The notes under the pieces: generated by a model
What the model was told of the DNA's origin: nothing
Databases searched by the model: none
Seen by the model: the letters and a program-made list of their open reading frames with translations, nothing else
Shown here: positions 50,939 through 60,266 of the stretch, piece after piece
Layout of the letters: each line of letters starts with the position of its first letter
Position numbering within the stretch: position 1 is the first letter of the stretch
From: an archaeon
GTDB lineage: Archaea > Nanobdellota > Nanobdellia > Woesearchaeales > GW2011-AR15
Length of the DNA: 60,266 bases
Direction of reading: 5' to 3'
Assembly (NCBI GenBank): GCA_018671515.1
Contig: JABHHN010000047.1
Location: 1-60,266 of the forward strand
Program-made: the position numbers and the translations under genes

Positions 50939-53749
50939 ATGCAAAATAATATCGTTATTAAAGGTGCTCGTGAACATAATTTAAAGAACATAAATATAAC
51001 TTTACCTAGAAATAAATTCATTGTAATAACTGGATTATCAGGTTCTGGTAAATCATCACTTGCTTTTGACACAATTTATGCAGAAGGTCAGAGAAGATAT
51101 GTTGAATCATTATCAGCTTATGCAAGACAGTTTCTTGAACTTATGGAAAAACCAGATGTTGATTCTATTGAAGGACTTTCCCCTGCAATATCAATTGAGC
51201 AAAAAACAACTTCAAGAAATCCAAGATCAACTGTTGGAACTGTTACAGAAATATATGATTATTTTAGACTTTTATTTGCAAGGATTGGAATTCCTCATTG
51301 TCCTAAATGTGATAAACAAATAAAACCACAGACATCTCAAGATATTGTAAAAAGTATAATTGAAAAGTTTGATGGAGAAAAAATAGTAGTTCTTGCACCA
51401 TTAGTTAGAGCAAAAAAAGGAACTTATGAAAAATTATACGAAGAATACCATAATAAAGGATATGCAAGGATGTGGACTAATGAAAATATTCATGACATAA
51501 AAGAAATTCCAACTCTTGAAAGATATAAAAAACATGATATCTCAGTTGTAATTGATAGATTAAAAGTGTCTGATAAAGAAATCAGCAGATTAACTGAATC
51601 TATTGAAAATGCACTAAAAGAATCCGAAGAAAAACTTGTACAAGTCTTAATAAAAGATACTGATAAAATTTCTATGTATTCTGCATCATATAGTTGTCCA
51701 GATCATCCTGAAATTAATATGGGTAATCTTGAACCAAGAATGTTTTCTTTCAATTCACCACATGGTGCATGTCCTGAATGCCATGGAATTGGTACAAAAA
51801 TGGAAATTGATCCTGATTTAGTAATTCCTGACAAATCTAAATCCATTTTTGAAGGAGCTATTGAAATCTATGGAAAAATGGATTTAACATGGAGATCACA
51901 ACAACTAAAAATAGTTGGGCGACGTCATGGATTTGAACTACACGAAGCTATTGAAGATTTTACAGAAAACCAATTAAATATTGTATTATATGGTTCTGAT
52001 GAACCTCTTCGTGGTGTGTGGAGTAATGGAGCAAATATGAATTTCGAAAATGGTTTTGAAGGTGTCATTCCACAAACTCTAAGATTATACAAACAAACTG
52101 ATTCAGAATATAGACGTCAAGTCATTGAAAAATTCATGAGAGAAAGATCTTGTGAAACTTGTAAAGGACTTAGATTAAAACCAATTACACTCTCTGTAAG
52201 AGTTTATGGGAAAAACATAACTGATGTCACTTCAATGTCAATAAGAAAAGCATTACTTTGGTTTTCTATGTTAAAATTAAATGAAACTGAAACTCAGATT
52301 GCAAGACAGGTTATGAAAGAAATCATTGAAAGATTAAGTTTCTTAAATTCCGTTGGTGTTGAATATCTTACACTTGATAGACGTGCTGGAACATTATCTG
52401 GTGGAGAAGCACAAAGAATAAGACTTGCAACTCAAATTGGATCAAATCTTACAGGAGTATTATATATTTTAGATGAACCATCAATTGGATTACATCAAAG
52501 AGATAATGATAAACTAATTGCAACATTAAAAAGACTAAGAGATCTTGGAAATACAATAATTGTTGTTGAACATGATGAAGAAACCATGGCAAAAGCAGAT
52601 CATATTGTTGATTTAGGTCCTGCTGCAGGTGTTCATGGTGGAGAAATTGTTGCACAAGGTAATATAAAAGATATAATGAAAAGCAAAAAGTCTCTTACAG
52701 GACAATATCTTTCTGGAAAATTAAAAATTGACACTCCAAAAGAAAGAAGAACTTCTGACAAATTCATTAATATTTACGGAGCAGAAGAAAATAATCTTAA
52801 AAATATTGATGTAAAAATACCACAAAATATACTAACATTAATTACAGGAGTATCTGGTTCAGGTAAATCTACTTTGATAAATGATACTTTATTTCAGACA
52901 CTTCACACTAGATTATACAGATCTCGTGAAAAACCAGGAAAATGTAAAGATATAACTTCTGACATCCCAATAGATAATGCAATTATTCTTGACCAGACAC
53001 CTATTGGTAAAACACCAAGAAGTAATCCTGCTACTTACACTAAATTATTTGATCCAATAAGACAACTATTTACCATGACTGAAGATTCAAAACTATTAGG
53101 ATTCAAAGCAGGACGATTTTCATTCAATGTTCCTGGAGGACGATGTGAAAATTGTAAAGGAGATGGATTGATTAAAATTGAAATGAATTTCCTTCCTGAT
53201 GTATATGTAAAATGTGAAGATTGCAAAGGTAAAAGGTATAATGCTCAGACATTAAAAATAAAGTACAAAGGAAAAAATATTGCAGATGTCCTTGATATGT
53301 CAATTGAAGAAGGATCTAAATTCTTTGAAAATATTCCTTCAATTAATAGAAAATTAAAAACACTTAATGATGTTGGATTAGGATATATGAAACTTGGACA
53401 ATCATCAACAACTCTTTCAGGTGGAGAAGCTCAAAGAATAAAAATTACACGTGAATTATCAAAAAAACAAAGTGGGCAGACTGTATATATTCTTGATGAA
53501 CCAACTACAGGTCTTCATTTTGAAGATATCAAAAAACTTCTTAATGTATTAAATAGATTAGTTGATAAAAATAATACAGTAATTCTAATTGAACATAATC
53601 TTGATGTTATAAAATCTGCAGATCATATAATCGATCTTGGACCAGAAGGTGGTGACGGTGGTGGAACAATAATCGCAGAAGGTTCGCCAAGTGATATTGC
53701 AAATGTAAAAGAAAGTTATACTGGGCAATATTTAAAGAAAGTTTTGTAG
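50939..53749 (+). CDS. uvrA: Excinuclease ABC subunit A
   Basis: GAREHNLKN, two GSGKSS/T plus LSGGEAQR sets, Zn-finger CPECHG...CETCKG, CENCKG...CEDCKG. Confidence 0.97.
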   Translation: MQNNIVIKGAREHNLKNINITLPRNKFIVITGLSGSGKSSLAFDTIYAEGQRRYVESLSAYARQFLELMEKPDVDSIEGLSPAISIEQKTTSRNPRSTVGTVTEIYDYFRLLFARIGIPHCPKCDKQIKPQTSQDIVKSIIEKFDGEKIVVLAPLVRAKKGTYEKLYEEYHNKGYARMWTNENIHDIKEIPTLERYKKHDISVVIDRLKVSDKEISRLTESIENALKESEEKLVQVLIKDTDKISMYSASYSCPDHPEINMGNLEPRMFSFNSPHGACPECHGIGTKMEIDPDLVIPDKSKSIFEGAIEIYGKMDLTWRSQQLKIVGRRHGFELHEAIEDFTENQLNIVLYGSDEPLRGVWSNGANMNFENGFEGVIPQTLRLYKQTDSEYRRQVIEKFMRERSCETCKGLRLKPITLSVRVYGKNITDVTSMSIRKALLWFSMLKLNETETQIARQVMKEIIERLSFLNSVGVEYLTLDRRAGTLSGGEAQRIRLATQIGSNLTGVLYILDEPSIGLHQRDNDKLIATLKRLRDLGNTIIVVEHDEETMAKADHIVDLGPAAGVHGGEIVAQGNIKDIMKSKKSLTGQYLSGKLKIDTPKERRTSDKFINIYGAEENNLKNIDVKIPQNILTLITGVSGSGKSTLINDTLFQTLHTRLYRSREKPGKCKDITSDIPIDNAIILDQTPIGKTPRSNPATYTKLFDPIRQLFTMTEDSKLLGFKAGRFSFNVPGGRCENCKGDGLIKIEMNFLPDVYVKCEDCKGKRYNAQTLKIKYKGKNIADVLDMSIEEGSKFFENIPSINRKLKTLNDVGLGYMKLGQSSTTLSGGEAQRIKITRELSKKQSGQTVYILDEPTTGLHFEDIKKLLNVLNRLVDKNNTVILIEHNLDVIKSADHIIDLGPEGGDGGGTIIAEGSPSDIANVKESYTGQYLKKVL

Positions 53750-53788
53750 AAAAAATATATAAACTAAAGTTTATTCCTATAAATTAAA

Positions 53789-54316
53789 ATGAACACACAT
53801 AAACTAAAATTTACATTACTTCAACAAGAAATCATTAATTTATTATCAATTAAAACTGGTACAAAATTAAACCAGAGAAGAATTTCTATCCTTCTAAAAG
53901 TTTCTCCTACTGCTGTATCAAAATCATTAATAAAATTAAAAAATCATAAAATAATTCAATTAGAAAAAGATAAATTTTCCAAAATTCTTTCAATATCTCT
54001 AAATTTTGAGAATCCCAAAGTTCAATATTTAAAAAGAATTGAAAATATAAAAATGATATATGAATCAGAATTAGCAGAATTTTTATATGAATCATTTCCG
54101 GGTTCAAGAATAATACTTTTTGGAAGCTATTCAAGAGGAGAAGACACTATAACTTCAGATGTTGATATTGCTATAGTTAAAAGCAAAGAAAAAAATATAA
54201 ATTTAATAAAATATGAAGAAATGTTAGAAAGAAAAATAAATTTAAATTTTTATAAAGATTTAAACAAACTAGACATAAATCTTAAAGCTAATATTGAAAG
54301 AGGAATTGATTTATGA
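53789..54316 (+). CDS. HTH + MNT-type nucleotidyltransferase (putative antitoxin)
   Basis: N-terminal HTH (NQRRISILLKVSPTAVSK); LFGSYSRGEDTITSDVDIAI. Confidence 0.85.
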   Translation: MNTHKLKFTLLQQEIINLLSIKTGTKLNQRRISILLKVSPTAVSKSLIKLKNHKIIQLEKDKFSKILSISLNFENPKVQYLKRIENIKMIYESELAEFLYESFPGSRIILFGSYSRGEDTITSDVDIAIVKSKEKNINLIKYEEMLERKINLNFYKDLNKLDINLKANIERGIDL

Positions 54317-54753
54317 TTCATATAAAAAAATTTGAAGATTATGTTAATGAAGGTATAATTAGAAAAGTAACATCTGATACTTTTAGATCAAAATCACTTA
54401 TTATTGATTCAAATAAAAGAAAAATATTTTTAGATGAAATAGAAAACAAAATAGGTGTTAAAGATGAAAATTCGAATTATTTTATTGAAAATTGTTATGA
54501 TATAATCATTCAATTATTAAGATCAAAACTTATTTTAAATGGGTATAAAGCATCAGGTCAAGGAGCTCATATTGCAGAAGTATCATATATGAAAAAGATA
54601 GGTTTTTTAGATGAAGATATGTATTTTATGAATGAATTAAGACATTTTAGAAATGGAATTAAATATTATGGCAAAAGATTTGATAAGGAATATGCTAATA
54701 AGACAATTAAATTCATGAAAAAATGTTCCAAATTTCTAGAAAATCAAAAATAA
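54313..54753 (+). CDS. HEPN-like partner protein (putative toxin)
   Basis: ATGA-coupled to the MNT gene; CYD.I..L...GY...GQGAH, ELRHFRNGIKYYG segments typical of archaeal MNT-associated HEPN-like proteins. Confidence 0.6.
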   Translation: MIHIKKFEDYVNEGIIRKVTSDTFRSKSLIIDSNKRKIFLDEIENKIGVKDENSNYFIENCYDIIIQLLRSKLILNGYKASGQGAHIAEVSYMKKIGFLDEDMYFMNELRHFRNGIKYYGKRFDKEYANKTIKFMKKCSKFLENQK

Positions 54754-54780
54754 TTAAACTTTCTAAGAAAAATTTATAAA

Positions 54781-54818
54781 TACACTTAATGTACACTTGA
54801 TATACACATCAAATACAC
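54781..54818 (+). promoter_or_regulatory. Four TACAC direct repeats at exact 11-bp spacing (candidate antitoxin operator)
   Basis: TACAC at 54781, 54792, 54803 and 54814, between a TTTATAAA TATA-like box and the GGTGA SD at 54821. Confidence 0.7.
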
Positions 54819-54830
54819 TAGGTGATAATT

Positions 54831-55082
54831 ATGATAAGTGCAAGAGTTAAATTAAATGATTATACAAACAAAGTACTAAATATGATTAAAATAAAGTATG
54901 ATTTGGACGACAAATCTCAGGCATTAAACAAGTTTGCAGATCTTTATGGTGAAGAAATTGTTGAAAAACAACCTAAAGATGAATATGTAAAAAAAATACT
55001 AAAAATTTGTGATGATGATATGAAAAAATATGGAAATAAAACTATGACTCTAAAAGAACTTGATGAATTATTTGAGGTCTAA
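54831..55082 (+). CDS. DUF2683-like antitoxin
   Basis: MISARVKLNDYTNKVLNMIK.KY.L.DKSQAL; upstream of a RelE-like gene; GGTGA SD favours ATG 54831. Confidence 0.7.
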   Translation: MISARVKLNDYTNKVLNMIKIKYDLDDKSQALNKFADLYGEEIVEKQPKDEYVKKILKICDDDMKKYGNKTMTLKELDELFEV

Positions 55083-55083
55083 A

Positions 55084-55356
55084 ATGTATGATTTTAGGCT
55101 AACCGATGAATTAAAAGTTAAAATTAGAAAATTAATTAAAAAAGACAAAAAAAAAGTTGAAATAATAAACAAAAAAATTAAAGAAATTATTAATAATGAT
55201 TCCATAACAATTAATAGATATAAAAATTTGAAATATGAATTAAAAGATTTAAAAAGAGTCCATATTGACAAACATTTTGTATTGGTTTTCAATGTTGAAA
55301 ATAAAAATAATCTTATAAGATTCATCAATTTTGATCATCATGATAATATTTATTAA
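55084..55356 (+). CDS. RelE/ParE/YafQ-like toxin
   Basis: Basic ~90-aa protein, YKNLKYELKDLKRVHID.HFVLVF...FINFDHHDNIY. Confidence 0.8.
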   Translation: MYDFRLTDELKVKIRKLIKKDKKKVEIINKKIKEIINNDSITINRYKNLKYELKDLKRVHIDKHFVLVFNVENKNNLIRFINFDHHDNIY

Positions 55357-55359
55357 AAA

Positions 55360-55861
55360 CTAATTCTTTAATGGATTCAATAAATCTATATTATCAATTA
55401 CATAAATTGAATTTATTTTGTCAAAATGATTTTTATATTTTATAGTATTTAATTCATCTTCCATTTTAACATCTGGTTTTCTATACCATACTGCATTCAT
55501 TCCTTTATCTGCTGCTGCAAGAACGTATCTTAATCTATCATCTACGTATAATATTTGAGAAGGTTTAAAATCTCTGTAAGGATCCTGATCCCAAAGATGA
55601 CCATCAGCTCTTGCAATTTCACTAGCTGGAAAATCATTGAAAGATTTGTATGCCGTTTTTTTATCACTCATATTTTGCAAGCCAAGTCCTAATTTATCAG
55701 GATCAACTTTTCTCATATATTCTTCTTTCATGAATTCATCTAAAGATAATCTAAGAGAATCAGTCTCCACAAGAACATCATCAATATCAAAATATACAAA
55801 TCTAATTCCTAATTTTTCAAAATCAATAGGAGCTGAAATTTATAGATTTGTATTTATTCAT
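55360..55861 (-). pseudogene. Short HAD-like protein with a 5' frameshift
   Basis: The frame upstream of the GTG at 55770 reads ISAPIDFEKLGIRFVYFDIDDVL (motif I) up to a TAA at 55842. The ATG at 55861 is one base out of frame. Motif IV ILYVDD present. Confidence 0.55.
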
Positions 55862-55995
55862 GCAATATTTTCTAAACCTAATATTTAAATACAAAAAAAG
55901 ATAGTAAATATATCTCTTTTTTTCAAAGAAATATTTAATATTCTCGGTCCATAAAATGAAAAGTTTTATAAACCAAAAACAAAATATGTTTACCT

Positions 55996-58900
55996 ATGAA
56001 ATACAACAAACCAATTCTTGGAATTTTTATGACAATGCTTTTATTAATCTCTGCATGTGGTGGTGATGGAACACCTGAAGAAATAATTGAAGAAAATGCT
56101 GCTAAAATAATTTCTACCTCTAATAAATTAATATCTATTGATGTAGGTACCGGATTTCAATTTCAAAGTCCAAGACCTGATTCAGAACAATATTGTAAAA
56201 ATTTTAGAGATAAATTAGAGATTATAGAAAATGAAAATATTAAAGATAATATGAATACATTCTATAATGATTTAGAAATACTTGATGCTTTTGTTGAAAA
56301 TAGTCCATATAATTCTATTGCTGCAAGATTTGGATCAATGGGTCTATTATCAAACGTCCCATTAGATGATACTGGTTATAAAATCATGCGTGATTTAATA
56401 ACTAATATGAAAAATGTAAATCCAGATTATCTTAAATTACAAGAAAATGGCAAGAGTGTTGGATTAGTTGTATGTGGTGATTCTAGAGTAAATTGTGTTA
56501 ATAATTTTATTCATAATGGTGAACAATGGATAATTTCTGAACAAAGAGCAATAGGTTCTCCAGGTGTTCTTTTCCCAGCTGAAGTAGATATTTCAATTAT
56601 CATGACTCATGGAAATACTTGTGCTGATACAGGTGGTTGTGGTGCACAAACAGCGTATGGTCAATTACGAGATAATGGTGCACAATTTTTAATAGATCAT
56701 GGTGTTCCTGACGTCACAGTAGACTGGCTTAGTGCTAATTTAGTAACTGATAACCCCTTTGATCAATCTGTACATTCAGCTATTATTTCTTCTAATGTAA
56801 ATAGTTTAGTACATGGTGGCGACAAAATTTCATTTTTCACATTTAATGAACATGGTACAAATAATATAATAATAAAAGGTGCTGCTTTTGCCGGAGATTT
56901 TGATAGAACAATACCTGGAGTAAATCAGTTACATCAAAATACAATAGTTGCTATGTTTAATACTGTTATTGATGCTACTGATGATATCAAAGCAATGGAT
57001 GCAATGGATGAATTATTTCGTTTATTAGAATCAGGTGAAGTATTATTAGATGAAGGTAGTAATATTTTAAAAACAAAAGATGGAAGAAAACTTATAAGTT
57101 TTTTAACACCTAAATATGATAGTTCAGTAGCTGGAAAAATGACTATTCATACTGTTGAATCATTAAAATCAGACCAAGCTTTTCTAAATGGAGTAAAACA
57201 ATTTAAAAATTTATTAATTGGTGAAGAAAAAATTGGAAGTATTATTAATTCTTTTAGACTTACACAAATGGGAGAACGTGTAAATTTTTTTAATAATGGA
57301 CTTGCTGTTATAAATAAAATGGCTGTTGCAGGACAAGCACCACTTCAAAACATTATTTATGCTACAAAAACTGGAAGACCTATTGGAGGTTCAGGAGGTA
57401 TTTTTGGTTCATACGCGGGAGAAAGTGGAAATTTTTTTAAAATAAGTATAAATTTAAATGGTTTAATACAATCAAATAGCGAAGGTTCTTATGCTTTGAA
57501 AACTGCTAGAATAGATACTATTAGAGCAGGTATACGTCAAGATCTTTATAACTATCTTAGTGCACATAATAAATGGTCAGATGTAACTTATCTTTTATCA
57601 GAAGATGCTGAAATATTAGGACTTTTAGTTGAAGAACATTTTAGCAATAAAAATATAATTGATTTTATAAATAATAAAGATAATTTTTACACCGTCATCG
57701 GACTTGTAGATGAACAAACTGGATTAATAAAAAACGCAAAAATAGTCCAAGTTATAGCTGATGGAGAAGATGCTCAAAAAATAGCCAAACAAGTTGGTGG
57801 AATTGTAAAAATTATTGAAGGTACTGAATTAGTTGAAAGTGAAATAAAATTAAATGGAATTGCCAAATTATTTGAATATTTCCCTGATGGAACTGTTAAA
57901 GCAATATATAGAATAAGAACATCACCTCTAGGAAAAGGTGTTTCTAACATTTTATCTATAATTTCAAAAAGCAAAATTGGAAATTTTGGAAAAGGTGTTT
58001 TTAATGGTTTTATAAAATTACAACCACTCTGGGATACTATGTTTGCACTACATTTAGATCATATATATACCGAAGGGAAAGATTATATTCATTTATATGA
58101 TGAATCTAAAATTTGGAATGCACAAAATATAAACCTTGAATTAGAAGTAAATAATGAAAATAATAGAAAATTCCCTAAATATTATAGTTCAGATGAATAT
58201 ATGGATATTTTAAAAAATTCTCCAAATGGTGCCCTTGATCCATACATGTATAATGGAAAATTTCATCAAGCAATTTCAAATGACATCTTATTTGAATCAT
58301 ATGTAAATGGTGCTTATAGTTTACTTTCAAGACTTGACTTAACTAATTTTCAAATTACCATAGAGAATTATTGGTCTTGGGTAGGATGTATAGTTCCAAA
58401 TAGTGAATGTTTAAAAATTGAAGGAAATACTTTTGATAGTTGTGTTCAAAGTTGTATGGATACTCTTATTTCTAAAGGACCTACAGTATTATCAAAAGAA
58501 ATTGTATTGAGTTATATTGATGGAAGTATATATAATAAAAATGAAGGTGAAAAACCCTATGAAAGAAGAAAATTTGCAACACCTTTAATTTTTTTACCTA
58601 CTGATTATGAACATAATAAATTCTATGAAATCTCATTACCTAGTGATGATTCTGATTTTATAAATGAAAAACAAAGAGTTAGAAATATATTTGCAAGTGG
58701 TGATGAGGCTGCACCTATGATTGTTTTTAACAAAATGAATGGAGAGTATGTAATGCCTTGTACTGATAGTCAAATGATTGTTCCAATAAGAGCAGTAAAT
58801 CCAGCTATAAACTTTGTTGATAATGAAGGTAAAAAAAATGCAAATGGAGTAATTTATTATATATCTGTTTTTTCTAGTGAAAATGATGACAGAATTCATT

Positions 58901-59670
58901 TTAAATATTTAGATAATCAAGAACTAAAATATGAATTTATTAATGAGAATGTAATCCCATCATATTCTGGATTAACTGATTTTACTCGATATATCCTAAA
59001 TGAAAAAAAATTTGATAACACACCTTTCGATTTATGTTATGATATAGATGATTCTTTTGATTATACTCACATACAAAAAATGACAAATATTGATTATGAT
59101 GAATGGATTATAGATGATTATTATCAAGGTAAAGAAACACCTATTTTAGGAATCGAACCTAAAAAAATAAGATTTAGTGAAATATTAAAAGACGAAACTA
59201 CTGCAATTGAAAACAGTATGAGAATCTATTGGAAAAAAGGAAATAAATTGTATGTTCCAAAAAATTCTAAAAACGGATGTTGTCCTGATATGGGTGGATT
59301 ATGTGAAAAACCAACTAGTTCTCCAAATGAGGATGCTACAGTAGAAACTTTACCTTCTGTACCTACAGCTACACCTGTTTCAGCACCAACAACAGGAGAA
59401 CCATTACCCCCACCATCACCAAACACAGACATAAGTTTTATACCTGAAAAAACATCTGTATGTTATCAAATTGAAGAGGGATATGAATATGGACCTTATA
59501 GTAATTATAATGTATGGGAAAGAAGAGATGTAAATTATTTAATAAATAATAATTTAGGTTCAAATGAATATTGGTACAATAGAAATCATATAACTATGGA
59601 TCAAATGAAAATAGAACTTAATGATCCAGAAAAAGATGCATATATATACGCTTTCTATTATTGCCAATAA
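55996..59670 (+). CDS. 1224-aa lipoprotein with beta-carbonic-anhydrase-like domain(s)
   Basis: ISA-C lipobox; LVVCGDSRV...EQRAIG...MTHGNTCADTGGCGA; later degenerate GQAP...GNFFK...SYAL; Pro/Thr linker near the C-terminus. Confidence 0.7.
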   Translation: MKYNKPILGIFMTMLLLISACGGDGTPEEIIEENAAKIISTSNKLISIDVGTGFQFQSPRPDSEQYCKNFRDKLEIIENENIKDNMNTFYNDLEILDAFVENSPYNSIAARFGSMGLLSNVPLDDTGYKIMRDLITNMKNVNPDYLKLQENGKSVGLVVCGDSRVNCVNNFIHNGEQWIISEQRAIGSPGVLFPAEVDISIIMTHGNTCADTGGCGAQTAYGQLRDNGAQFLIDHGVPDVTVDWLSANLVTDNPFDQSVHSAIISSNVNSLVHGGDKISFFTFNEHGTNNIIIKGAAFAGDFDRTIPGVNQLHQNTIVAMFNTVIDATDDIKAMDAMDELFRLLESGEVLLDEGSNILKTKDGRKLISFLTPKYDSSVAGKMTIHTVESLKSDQAFLNGVKQFKNLLIGEEKIGSIINSFRLTQMGERVNFFNNGLAVINKMAVAGQAPLQNIIYATKTGRPIGGSGGIFGSYAGESGNFFKISINLNGLIQSNSEGSYALKTARIDTIRAGIRQDLYNYLSAHNKWSDVTYLLSEDAEILGLLVEEHFSNKNIIDFINNKDNFYTVIGLVDEQTGLIKNAKIVQVIADGEDAQKIAKQVGGIVKIIEGTELVESEIKLNGIAKLFEYFPDGTVKAIYRIRTSPLGKGVSNILSIISKSKIGNFGKGVFNGFIKLQPLWDTMFALHLDHIYTEGKDYIHLYDESKIWNAQNINLELEVNNENNRKFPKYYSSDEYMDILKNSPNGALDPYMYNGKFHQAISNDILFESYVNGAYSLLSRLDLTNFQITIENYWSWVGCIVPNSECLKIEGNTFDSCVQSCMDTLISKGPTVLSKEIVLSYIDGSIYNKNEGEKPYERRKFATPLIFLPTDYEHNKFYEISLPSDDSDFINEKQRVRNIFASGDEAAPMIVFNKMNGEYVMPCTDSQMIVPIRAVNPAINFVDNEGKKNANGVIYYISVFSSENDDRIHFKYLDNQELKYEFINENVIPSYSGLTDFTRYILNEKKFDNTPFDLCYDIDDSFDYTHIQKMTNIDYDEWIIDDYYQGKETPILGIEPKKIRFSEILKDETTAIENSMRIYWKKGNKLYVPKNSKNGCCPDMGGLCEKPTSSPNEDATVETLPSVPTATPVSAPTTGEPLPPPSPNTDISFIPEKTSVCYQIEEGYEYGPYSNYNVWERRDVNYLINNNLGSNEYWYNRNHITMDQMKIELNDPEKDAYIYAFYYCQ

Positions 59671-59741
59671 ACAATAATTTTTTTCTTTTTATTTTTTTCA
59701 ACCTAACTTATTAATACACCATTCCATTTCTTCTTGTCTAT

Positions 59742-59897
59742 ATGAAATATAATCCGCCTAAAAACCCCGGCGTTTACTTAATAAAAGACAAAGATGAATC
59801 AATCATCTATGTTGGAAAGGCAAAAAATATCAAGAAAAGAAATGCTTTAAATCCTTGTACAATAAGATACTTCAACAACAATTTACAAAATATTTAG
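59742..59897 (+). pseudogene. uvrC: UvrC N-terminal (GIY-YIG) remnant
   Basis: MKYNPPKNPGVYLIKDKDESIIYVGKAKNIKKR, then unrelated sequence and a stop at 59895-59897 (51 aa). Confidence 0.75.
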
Positions 59898-59925
59898 AAC
59901 TAAATTAATCATATTAATTTATATC

Positions 59926-60222
59926 ATGAAATTAACAGCAGATAAAATAATTGGAATAATAAATGAAAACAAAAAATAAAAAAAAAAATTTAATGTAAAA
60001 AAAATTGGTTTATTTGGTTCATATATTAAAAATAAGCAAAAAAAAGACAGTGATCTAGATTTTATTGATACCTTTGAAAAAAATACATTTGATAATTATA
60101 TGGATCTTAAATTTCTTTTAGAAAAATTATTCAATAAAAATGTTGATTTAATAATTGAAAAAAGTTTAAAACCTAGACTTAAATATGTAAAAAAAGAGAC
60201 AATCTATCTCAAGAGATTATAA
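59926..60222 (+). pseudogene. MNT nucleotidyltransferase with premature TAA
   Basis: MKLTADKII...NKK*KKKFNVKKIGLFGSYIKNKQKKDSDLDF...NVDL...KYVKKETIYLKRL*; in-frame stop at 59977-59979. Confidence 0.8.
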
Positions 60223-60266
60223 ATTATATGTTGATGATATTGATTTTATAATAACTGATAATGAAG
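60206..60266 (+). pseudogene. HEPN (DUF86) 5' remnant lacking its start codon; runs to the window end
   Basis: ATC TCA AGA GAT TAT AAA TTA TAT GTT GAT GAT ATT = (I)SRDYKLYVDDI, versus MSKDYRVYLNDI at 23061, with the same overlap geometry with the MNT stop. Confidence 0.6.

Follow-up and report, generated by a model that had tools for sequence, protein, structure and literature searches.

A predicted lipid-anchored, two-domain protein of the beta-carbonic anhydrase superfamily with one putative composite zinc site in a Woesearchaeales archaeon

The window analyzed here, a 60,266-nucleotide stretch of DNA from an archaeon of the order Woesearchaeales (GenBank assembly GCA_018671515.1, contig JABHHN010000047.1, positions 1 to 60,266), contains a 1224-codon open reading frame (ORF) at 55996-59670 on the plus strand that read through open to its stop codon. 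Sequence comparison indicates that its product is probably a lipid-anchored, single-chain, pseudo-dimeric enzyme of the beta-carbonic anhydrase (beta-CA) superfamily with one composite zinc site. A sequence-only reading of the gene had proposed a giant lipoprotein with a beta-CA-like zinc site and a degenerate second copy; the ORF and all residues named in that reading were found at the positions given there. The window protein is referred to as P0001, and all residue numbers are in P0001 numbering, counted from Met1 at 55996. The finding concerns two regions, given here with their extent in amino acids (aa).

56401..56895, plus strand: domain 1 (aa ~136-300), a putative catalytic domain with a predicted, divergent beta-CA fold, assigned from residue invariance, hhalign, the strand order in AlphaFold2 (AF2) models and Foldseek
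57286..57795, plus strand: domain 2 (aa ~431-600), a ligand-less beta-CA-like repeat, assigned from hhalign, the residue map and residue invariance

When 1.84 billion representatives were searched exhaustively with phmmer (cut-off E<=1e-3), 17 proteins were matched, and the best shared stretch was aa 135-296, which is the region of the proposed zinc site. The matches included a 1220-aa sister (P0008) that was 28-32% identical and carried the same signal peptide, thirteen proteins of 724-1064 aa, a 320-aa fragment (P0015), the protein's own cluster (P0002) and a fragment of that cluster (P0009). A match to P0019 was dismissed as a spurious repeat protein. Further members were added by genome searches, and a contig scan with a seven-sequence alignment gave one locus. 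Word-indexed homolog searches found nothing beyond the protein itself (a cluster ~100% identical), P0008 and a few bacterial members, and did not deepen the alignment. The family thus stood at about 20 distant relatives, one of them the archaeal sister and the others bacterial-type. The only named relative was a hypothetical protein from Candidatus Roizmanbacteria, a member of the Candidate Phyla Radiation (CPR), that was 38% identical to P0012, a compact homolog. No family member matched any Pfam family, and no description of such a family was found in the searchable literature. In the 20-sequence alignment the mean column identity was 20%, and thirteen residues were invariant: N137, C160, D162, R164, S200, H205, C215, G216, Q447, P449, F481, Y520 and G916.

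The predicted zinc ligands C160 (56473-56475), H205 (56608-56610) and C215 (56638-56640) lie in domain 1 and were invariant in all 20 sequences; C160 and C215 also aligned to canonical beta-CA ligands. C160 sits in VVCGDSRV, R184 opens the RAIG motif, and G216 directly follows C215. The predicted Asp-Arg dyad, D162 (56479-56481) and R164 (56485-56487), was likewise invariant. The motif reads CGDSR in P0001 and CADAR in the most divergent member, where S163 is replaced, showing that the minimal CxDxR is what is strictly kept. The Cys/Asp/Arg...His/Cys set of beta-CAs that had been read from the sequence therefore consists of five residues that are all invariant at ~20% identity. Two candidates had been put forward for the second cysteine, of which C215 (56638) was invariant and C209 (56620) was not conserved in the family, leaving C215 as the ligand candidate. 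An insertion between His and Cys had also been suggested and was confirmed: the spacing was H-x9-C in 17 members, seven residues more than the canonical HxxC, and H-x10-C in the other 3. The pattern C.D.R-x25-75-H-x2-11-CG appeared in 4 of 20,000 shuffles of the window protein; among 2390 ORFs of the genome (>=100 aa) it was present in 3, the canonical beta-CA being one.

A beta-CA profile was built from ten canonical beta-CAs of the source's archaeal order and aligned by hhalign to family profiles of aa 128-296 (domain 1) and aa 428-600 (domain 2). Domain 1 aligned with a probability of 88.6% (P=2.6e-6, score 44.9), and column-shuffled profiles (n=24) gave scores of 13.0 +- 2.7 with a maximum of 19.3. 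The corresponding values for domain 2 were 53.9%, P=1.3e-4 and a score of 34.0, with a shuffled null (n=24) of 12.2 +- 1.8 and a maximum of 16.8. Both scores were about 12 standard deviations (SD) over their nulls with the motifs in register, and the signal was gone when one side was reversed (P=0.15-0.43). BLASTP against the beta-CA of the same genome aligned no more than 13 residues around CxDSRV (E=0.046). A closer relationship of domain 1 to Pro_CA_2 than to Pro_CA was considered and rejected, as no profile similarity of Pro_CA_2 to either domain was detectable.

The AF2 model of P0012, which is without the ~130-aa insertion between the domains of the window protein, had a predicted local distance difference test (pLDDT) score of 80-96 across both domains. 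Each domain in this model had the order beta1, beta2, (alpha), beta3, helices, beta4, beta5. The CxDxR motif follows beta1, the His closes beta3 and the CG opens the next helix, which matches beta-CA. When the P0012 model was compared with 350,542 PDB chains by Foldseek, the Coccomyxa beta-CA 3ucj_A ranked first. With the model of the window protein, the top rows were sugar-binding proteins and beta-CAs recurred among the weak matches, 2a8c_A having the highest probability (0.41; target TM-score 0.46). On the fold, the sequence-only reading was not refuted: a beta-CA was top for the confident model and had the highest probability for the other, but the E-values were not significant.

The residues of domain 2 complement those of domain 1. 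One monomer of Coccomyxa beta-CA provides the zinc ligands C47, H103 and C106 and the dyad D49/R51, and Gln38', Phe66', Tyr88' and His92' are donated by the other (PMC3230598). The hhalign alignment to beta-CA, in Coccomyxa numbering, gave the following map.

Zinc ligand C47: C160 in domain 1; A456 in domain 2
Dyad residue D49: D162 in domain 1; K458 in domain 2
Dyad residue R51: R164 in domain 1; G464 in domain 2
Zinc ligand H103: T212 in domain 1 when ungapped, with H205 seven residues upstream; E536 in domain 2
Zinc ligand C106: C215 in domain 1; gap in domain 2
G107: G216 in domain 1; gap in domain 2
In-trans Gln38': K153 in domain 1; Q447 in domain 2
In-trans Phe66': S181 in domain 1; F481 in domain 2
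In-trans Tyr88': I199 in domain 1; Y520 in domain 2
In-trans His92': M203 in domain 1; H524 in domain 2

Domain 2 retains Q447 (57334-57336), P449, F481 (57436-57438), Y520 (57553-57555) and H524 (57565-57567), and all of these except H524 were among the residues invariant in the 20 sequences. At the level of the alignment, domain 2 therefore holds the in-trans Gln/Phe/Tyr/His residues of a beta-CA, and the invariant residues read as the union of one half-site per domain, as expected if a pseudo-dimer has retained only one composite active site. This complementary pattern argues for retained catalysis over a merely structural metal site. A ligand-less second copy had been proposed earlier from the segments GQAP (57331), LQNIIYA (57343), GNFFK (57427) and SYAL (57487). 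The pseudo-dimer reading stood, with the profile match of domain 2 and its in-trans residues behind it, but the SYAL stretch was not conserved.

In the mechanism that we propose, C160, H205 and C215 of domain 1 would bind a single catalytic zinc, and D162-R164 would act as the gate-keeper dyad. Domain 2 would be a duplicated beta-CA fold minus its own zinc site, packing on domain 1 like the second subunit of an ordinary beta-CA dimer. Its residues Q447, F481, Y520 and H524 would contribute the substrate pocket and the proton path, so that each chain would have one composite site. The reaction would most likely be CO2 + H2O <-> HCO3- + H+ at the cell surface, and the conserved C-terminal half would probably position or tether the enzyme, possibly towards a partner cell.

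Several results weigh against this reading. The whole protein and five pieces of it had no meaningful match among Pfam, NCBIfam or PDB sequences, and the full-length and domain-1 profiles had no significant beta-CA match among PDB sequences. Every family member fell below the gathering score of Pfam PF00484 (Pro_CA), with a best E of 0.08; at this sub-threshold level, no other Pfam family was reached by two or more members. The AF2 model of aa 96-640 of the window protein was poor, with a mean pLDDT of 56 (70-87 in the motif core), and the AF2 models rest on shallow alignments of 15-20 sequences. The first-ranked match of the P0012 model, 3ucj_A, was below significance (E=0.043, probability 0.63, target TM-score 0.34), and at E<=1e-3 Foldseek had no match for either model in the PDB or for the one that was also compared with viral structures. 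Self-BLAST and hhalign detected no internal repeat between domain 1 and domain 2, so the case for a duplication runs solely through beta-CA. Ungapped hhalign places the canonical His at T212, and the candidacy of H205 as a ligand thus depends on its invariance, its strand position and an analogy with CsoSCA, the alpha-carboxysomal carbonic anhydrase (PDB 2FGY, 8THM). Finally, a role for a carbonic anhydrase at the surface is not obvious, because the genome has a canonical cytoplasmic beta-CA and no SulP-type transporter was found in it.

The predicted lipid anchor is supported by a lipobox, which was traced to the following region.

55996..56058, plus strand: signal peptide and lipobox (aa 1-21, MKYNKPILGIFMTMLLLIS-A-C21), read from the sequence, with Met1 supported by P0008

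The N-terminus MKYNKPILGIFMTMLLLISAC carries the lipobox ISA|C21, with Cys21 as the predicted lipid-attachment residue. The run LLLIS-A-C21 follows a K-containing n-region and a hydrophobic core and agrees with the lipobox pattern [LVI][ASTVI][GAS]C. The lipobox cysteine was present in 17 of the 20 family members, and a twin-arginine-type RR motif was found upstream of it in at least 9. Judged from these motifs, the combination would suit a metalloprotein that the bacterial members export already folded; in the archaeal pair P0001/P0008, the lipobox signal is of the Sec type. P0001 and P0008 agree in all of their first 15 residues, MKYNKPILGIFMTML, although the rest of the two proteins is only 28-32% identical. 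That these residues are shared with so divergent a sister supports translation starting at Met1 (55996). The public gene calls P0002 and P0007 (1213 aa) begin at Met12 (region 55996-56028), dropping the positively charged n-region. The cysteines of the C-terminal half are paired or clustered (C798/C805/C816/C820, C922/C1014, C1095/C1096/C1103 and C1156/C1223), an arrangement consistent with an oxidizing extracytoplasmic location.

On sequence grounds, CO2 hydration is most likely the default activity, and hydrolysis of carbonyl sulfide (COS) or carbon disulfide (CS2) is its main functional rival. The beta-CA family also includes COS hydrolase (3VQJ) and CS2 hydrolase, whose Cys2His/Asp-Arg site is the same. 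The same fold and metal site could thus act on another linear triatomic substrate, COS or CS2, and the catalytic residues cannot discriminate these activities; a different specificity would also be less redundant in a genome that already has an ordinary beta-CA. The COS hydrolase 3vqj was the only single-stretch match of the domain-1 profile among PDB sequences, but at E=1.4 the match was not significant. We consider a COS or CS2 hydrolase unlikely, as the Gln/Phe/Tyr triad defining the plant-type CO2 pocket is retained in domain 2 and no sulfur-metabolism context was seen within the window. Both hydrolases share the predicted ligand and dyad chemistry with the lipoprotein but are cytoplasmic homo-oligomers with HxxC spacing.

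A second alternative is that the beta-CA-derived part has become catalytically silent, serving as a scaffold with a structural zinc or with a role in sensing or binding CO2 or bicarbonate at the foot of a large surface adhesin in which the C-terminal half would do the actual work. The portion without relationship to carbonic anhydrase (aa ~601-1224) makes up over half of the protein and is adhesin-like, being Cys-rich with a Pro/Thr linker and a terminal domain, and the family is confined to episymbiont-type lineages. A closed inactive state in which the Asp is the fourth ligand occurs in some beta-CAs (PMC13514724), which would also suit a silent protein. However, the Asp-Arg dyad and the in-trans Gln/Phe/Tyr/His residues are needless for a structural site, yet they were invariant or nearly so at ~20% identity, and we regard this alternative as distinctly improbable. 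A chance or convergent resemblance of some unrelated flavodoxin- or Rossmann-like alpha/beta fold, such as a periplasmic-binding-protein-like protein or another hydrolase, would agree with the lack of significance against curated libraries and with the sugar-binding proteins heading one Foldseek list, but it is very improbable indeed given that two separate domains aligned to beta-CA in register at ~12 SD over their nulls, that the retained and lost residues are exactly complementary between them, that a beta-CA ranked first in the PDB for the confident model and that the motif arose in so few shuffles.

The closest parallel to the single-chain pseudo-dimer proposed here is CsoSCA. That enzyme has an N-domain, a catalytic domain and a non-catalytic beta-CA-like C-domain, with the ligands C173, H242 and C253 (PMC12646314, citing Sawaya et al. 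2006). The lipoprotein resembles it in having a helical N-region, a putative catalytic domain related to beta-CA and then a zinc-ligand-free beta-CA-like domain, with one predicted site per chain. The His-Cys spacing is long in both (H242/C253 in CsoSCA, x9/x10 here), whereas ordinary beta-CAs have HxxC, and both families are too divergent for the Pro_CA model. Unlike CsoSCA, the lipoprotein has an export signal and a predicted lipid anchor, is not encapsulated in a carboxysome, has no carboxysome or Rubisco context and adds a C-terminal module of ~620 aa; it is found in CPR-type bacteria and an archaeon of the DPANN group, not in autotrophs. No sequence or Pfam link was found from any member to the CsoSCA families. 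The protein is classed outside the annotated families because it falls short of both Pro_CA and CsoSCA membership and has a non-canonical His-Cys spacing.

The canonical plant-type beta-CAs (Coccomyxa 3UCJ, pea, Haemophilus influenzae 2A8C; PF00484) have in common with the lipoprotein the CxDxR motif, the His and the helix-start Cys-Gly, as well as the pocket residues Gln (GQxP), Phe and Tyr and the proton-path His. Their dimers consist of identical chains that each carry both residue sets and form two sites, whereas in the lipoprotein the sets are split and one site would result. The lipoprotein differs further in its seven-residue His-Cys insertion and its score under the Pfam threshold, and it is predicted to be exported and is 1224 aa long; the canonical beta-CAs of these genomes are cytoplasmic proteins of ~210 aa. 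The beta-CA of Porphyridium purpureum contains two tandem beta-CA repeats that form a single-chain pseudo-dimer, with zinc sites in both repeats. The lipoprotein is alike as a predicted pseudo-dimer but differs in that only its first repeat keeps the predicted zinc site. Proteins of the Pro_CA_2 family (PF20393) carry CxDFR...HEDCGA and adjoin family members in two bacterial-type contigs, but their profile was not detectably similar to that of either domain.

Another possible two-domain protein was encountered in the genome, 1.6 kb from the canonical beta-CA. This 585-aa ORF (C115:1243-2997, minus strand, locus L026) has no signal peptide and contains MCSDSRAII...NHFGCG, with the canonical HxxCG spacing, followed by a KKGQNP-strand, GFGITV, YYAISHY and FIDNGGQVYGLVV. 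A collinear alignment of the family's domain-2 profile with this ORF spanned 111 columns (P=6e-4), and on that basis the ORF may encode a cytoplasmic cousin with a catalytic and a degenerate beta-CA-like domain. It had no Pfam match and was absent from 60 relatives. The possibility that it is a CsoSCA-like protein of solved structure was rejected, as it matched nothing in the PDB or Pfam.

The remaining parts of the protein are listed below.

56059..56400, plus strand: N-terminal linker and helical region (aa 22-135), including the family-invariant N137 helix that leads to domain 1, assigned from alignments and the AF2 helices before beta1
56896..57285, plus strand: lineage-specific insertion between the domains (aa ~301-430), assigned from alignment columns 730-860, without counterpart in the bacterial-type homologs and with pLDDT <50
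57796..58875, plus strand: C-terminal region conserved in the family (aa ~601-960), in which a beta-rich domain follows a long helical segment, assigned from alignments and the AF2 model of P0012
58876..59304, plus strand: extension (aa ~961-1103) common to P0008 alone, assigned from the alignment and ending in CC...C (C1095, C1096, C1103)
59305..59460, plus strand: Pro/Thr/Ser-rich linker (aa ~1104-1155), read from the sequence
59461..59670, plus strand: terminal Tyr/Asn-rich domain of ~68 aa between C1156 and C1223, with the stop codon, read from the sequence

The beta-rich domain contains the motifs PLIF.P, TGEF and MIVPV and the invariant G916, and its equivalent in P0012 was modeled by AF2 at a pLDDT of 80-88. 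A four-Cys insert (C798, C805, C816, C820) is specific to P0001. The C-terminal region had no significant Foldseek, Pfam or PDB relative; START-like, PsbP-like and other Foldseek matches at E>0.2 were rejected as noise, as were phage proteins with a root-mean-square deviation of ~19 A. For the Pro/Thr linker and the last ~68 residues, no homolog was found in the searches, the own genome included. The remainder of the protein and its Cys tail, which had been described as having no recognizable identity, indeed gave no significant library or structural match. The C-terminal half is regarded as a tether or contact module.

The gene was found in its own genome alone: neither 60 related genomes nor a sample of 300 genomes spanning the class contained it. 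A similarly patchy picture was obtained on the bacterial side: in the class of the bacterial genome G061, one of 401 genomes was positive, namely G061 itself, and of the 61 genomes made up of G061 and its 60 close relatives, 5 had a match, in one case only a weak N-terminal one (E=6e-4). In a midpoint-rooted tree, P0001 and P0008 were sisters (support 100/99), the archaeal pair was sister to a 12-member bacterial-type clade, and a 6-member clade stood outside both. This topology suggests transfer of the gene from CPR-type bacteria to the archaeal lineage, a reading that depends on the root and on the members being bacterial.

Small proteins with a CxDxR...HxxC(G/A) motif adjoined the family gene in 3 of 8 bacterial-type neighborhoods, at these positions.

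L015:3182-3547: small CxDxR neighbor
L025:3845-4231: small CxDxR neighbor
L020:1-678: small CxDxR neighbor

Two of the three belong to Pfam PF20393, Pro_CA_2 (E=3.4e-14 for the one in L015), and the neighbor in L020 (TCVDGR...DSHIGCAA) had no Pfam match. The exported and the cytoplasmic carbonic anhydrase-like proteins may be functionally paired. A 203-aa ORF without a Pfam match lies directly downstream of the family gene on the opposite strand in two neighborhoods (L014:2490-3101 and L016:3113-3724, both minus strand), and its equal length and position suggest that it is a conserved neighbor.

Surface proteins of CPR and DPANN organisms are the main clue to their life on other cells. It is conceivable, though doubtful, that the family is a surface enzyme of ultra-small episymbionts, exchanged between CPR and DPANN, fused to a partner-contact module and controlling CO2, bicarbonate or pH in the gap that separates the symbiont from its host. 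If the proposed architecture is right, the lipoprotein would be the second known beta-CA, after CsoSCA, to give up one of the two dimer sites, and the first case in which conservation directly shows which half supplies which part of the site, amounting to a natural dissection of the composite active site of beta-CAs. The family would, in addition, be an exported and lipid-anchored group of beta-CAs without annotation in current libraries and restricted to genome-reduced CPR-type and DPANN organisms. An extracellular enzyme handling inorganic carbon or pH would be a testable piece of the symbiont-host interface, and the patchy distribution, with the archaeal pair nested in bacterial diversity, would add a cross-domain transfer between ultra-small prokaryotes.

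The source assembly comprised 120 contigs and 1.88 Mb, with a completeness of 89.6%. The window has a G+C content of ~27% and encodes a family-B DNA polymerase and an RFC-like AAA+ protein (archaeal replication), together with UvrA, UvrB and a UvrD-like helicase. In the genome-wide scan, the canonical 218-aa beta-CA on contig C115 was the only PF00484 match, and the genome searches found neither Pro_CA_2 (PF20393) nor the SulP-type bicarbonate transporter mentioned above. A tblastn search of the whole genome with eight segments of the lipoprotein found no paralog. Upstream of the gene, one candidate promoter element was read.

55964..55972, plus strand: TATA-like box TTTTATAAA, read from the sequence, centered ~28 nt 5' of the ATG

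A distance of ~28 nt is the established spacing of the archaeal TATA box, and the element suggests a leaderless or near-leaderless archaeal transcript for the lipoprotein gene.

The lipoprotein gene has uvrA on one side, a uvrC remnant on the other and toxin-antitoxin-like genes around it, so that the locus looks like an island. Between uvrA and the ORF (53789-55770), a nucleotidyltransferase (NTase) gene (PF01909) at 53789-54316 is overlapped by a 146-aa ORF at 54313-54753; as read from their arrangement, the two have the typical layout of an NTase/HEPN-like toxin-antitoxin pair. They are followed by two small, mutually overlapping ORFs (54822-55082 and 55060-55356) and by a 136-aa ORF on the minus strand (55360-55770), all without a Pfam match, and the stretch 53789-55770 as a whole looks like a variable island. 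A further NTase-like ORF begins near 59990. Downstream of the lipoprotein gene, a 33-codon uvrC stub (window 59742-59841) matches, at 94% identity, the initial 100 nt of an intact uvrC of 565 aa, located ~1.75 kb beyond the stub at L003:11495-13193. The two uvrC copies bracket two small minus-strand genes without a Pfam match. Contig L003 is 100% identical to window positions 53700-60266 and continues past the end of the window's contig, which stops short of the intact uvrC; the presence of the intact copy on L003 indicates that uvrC is retained in the strain.

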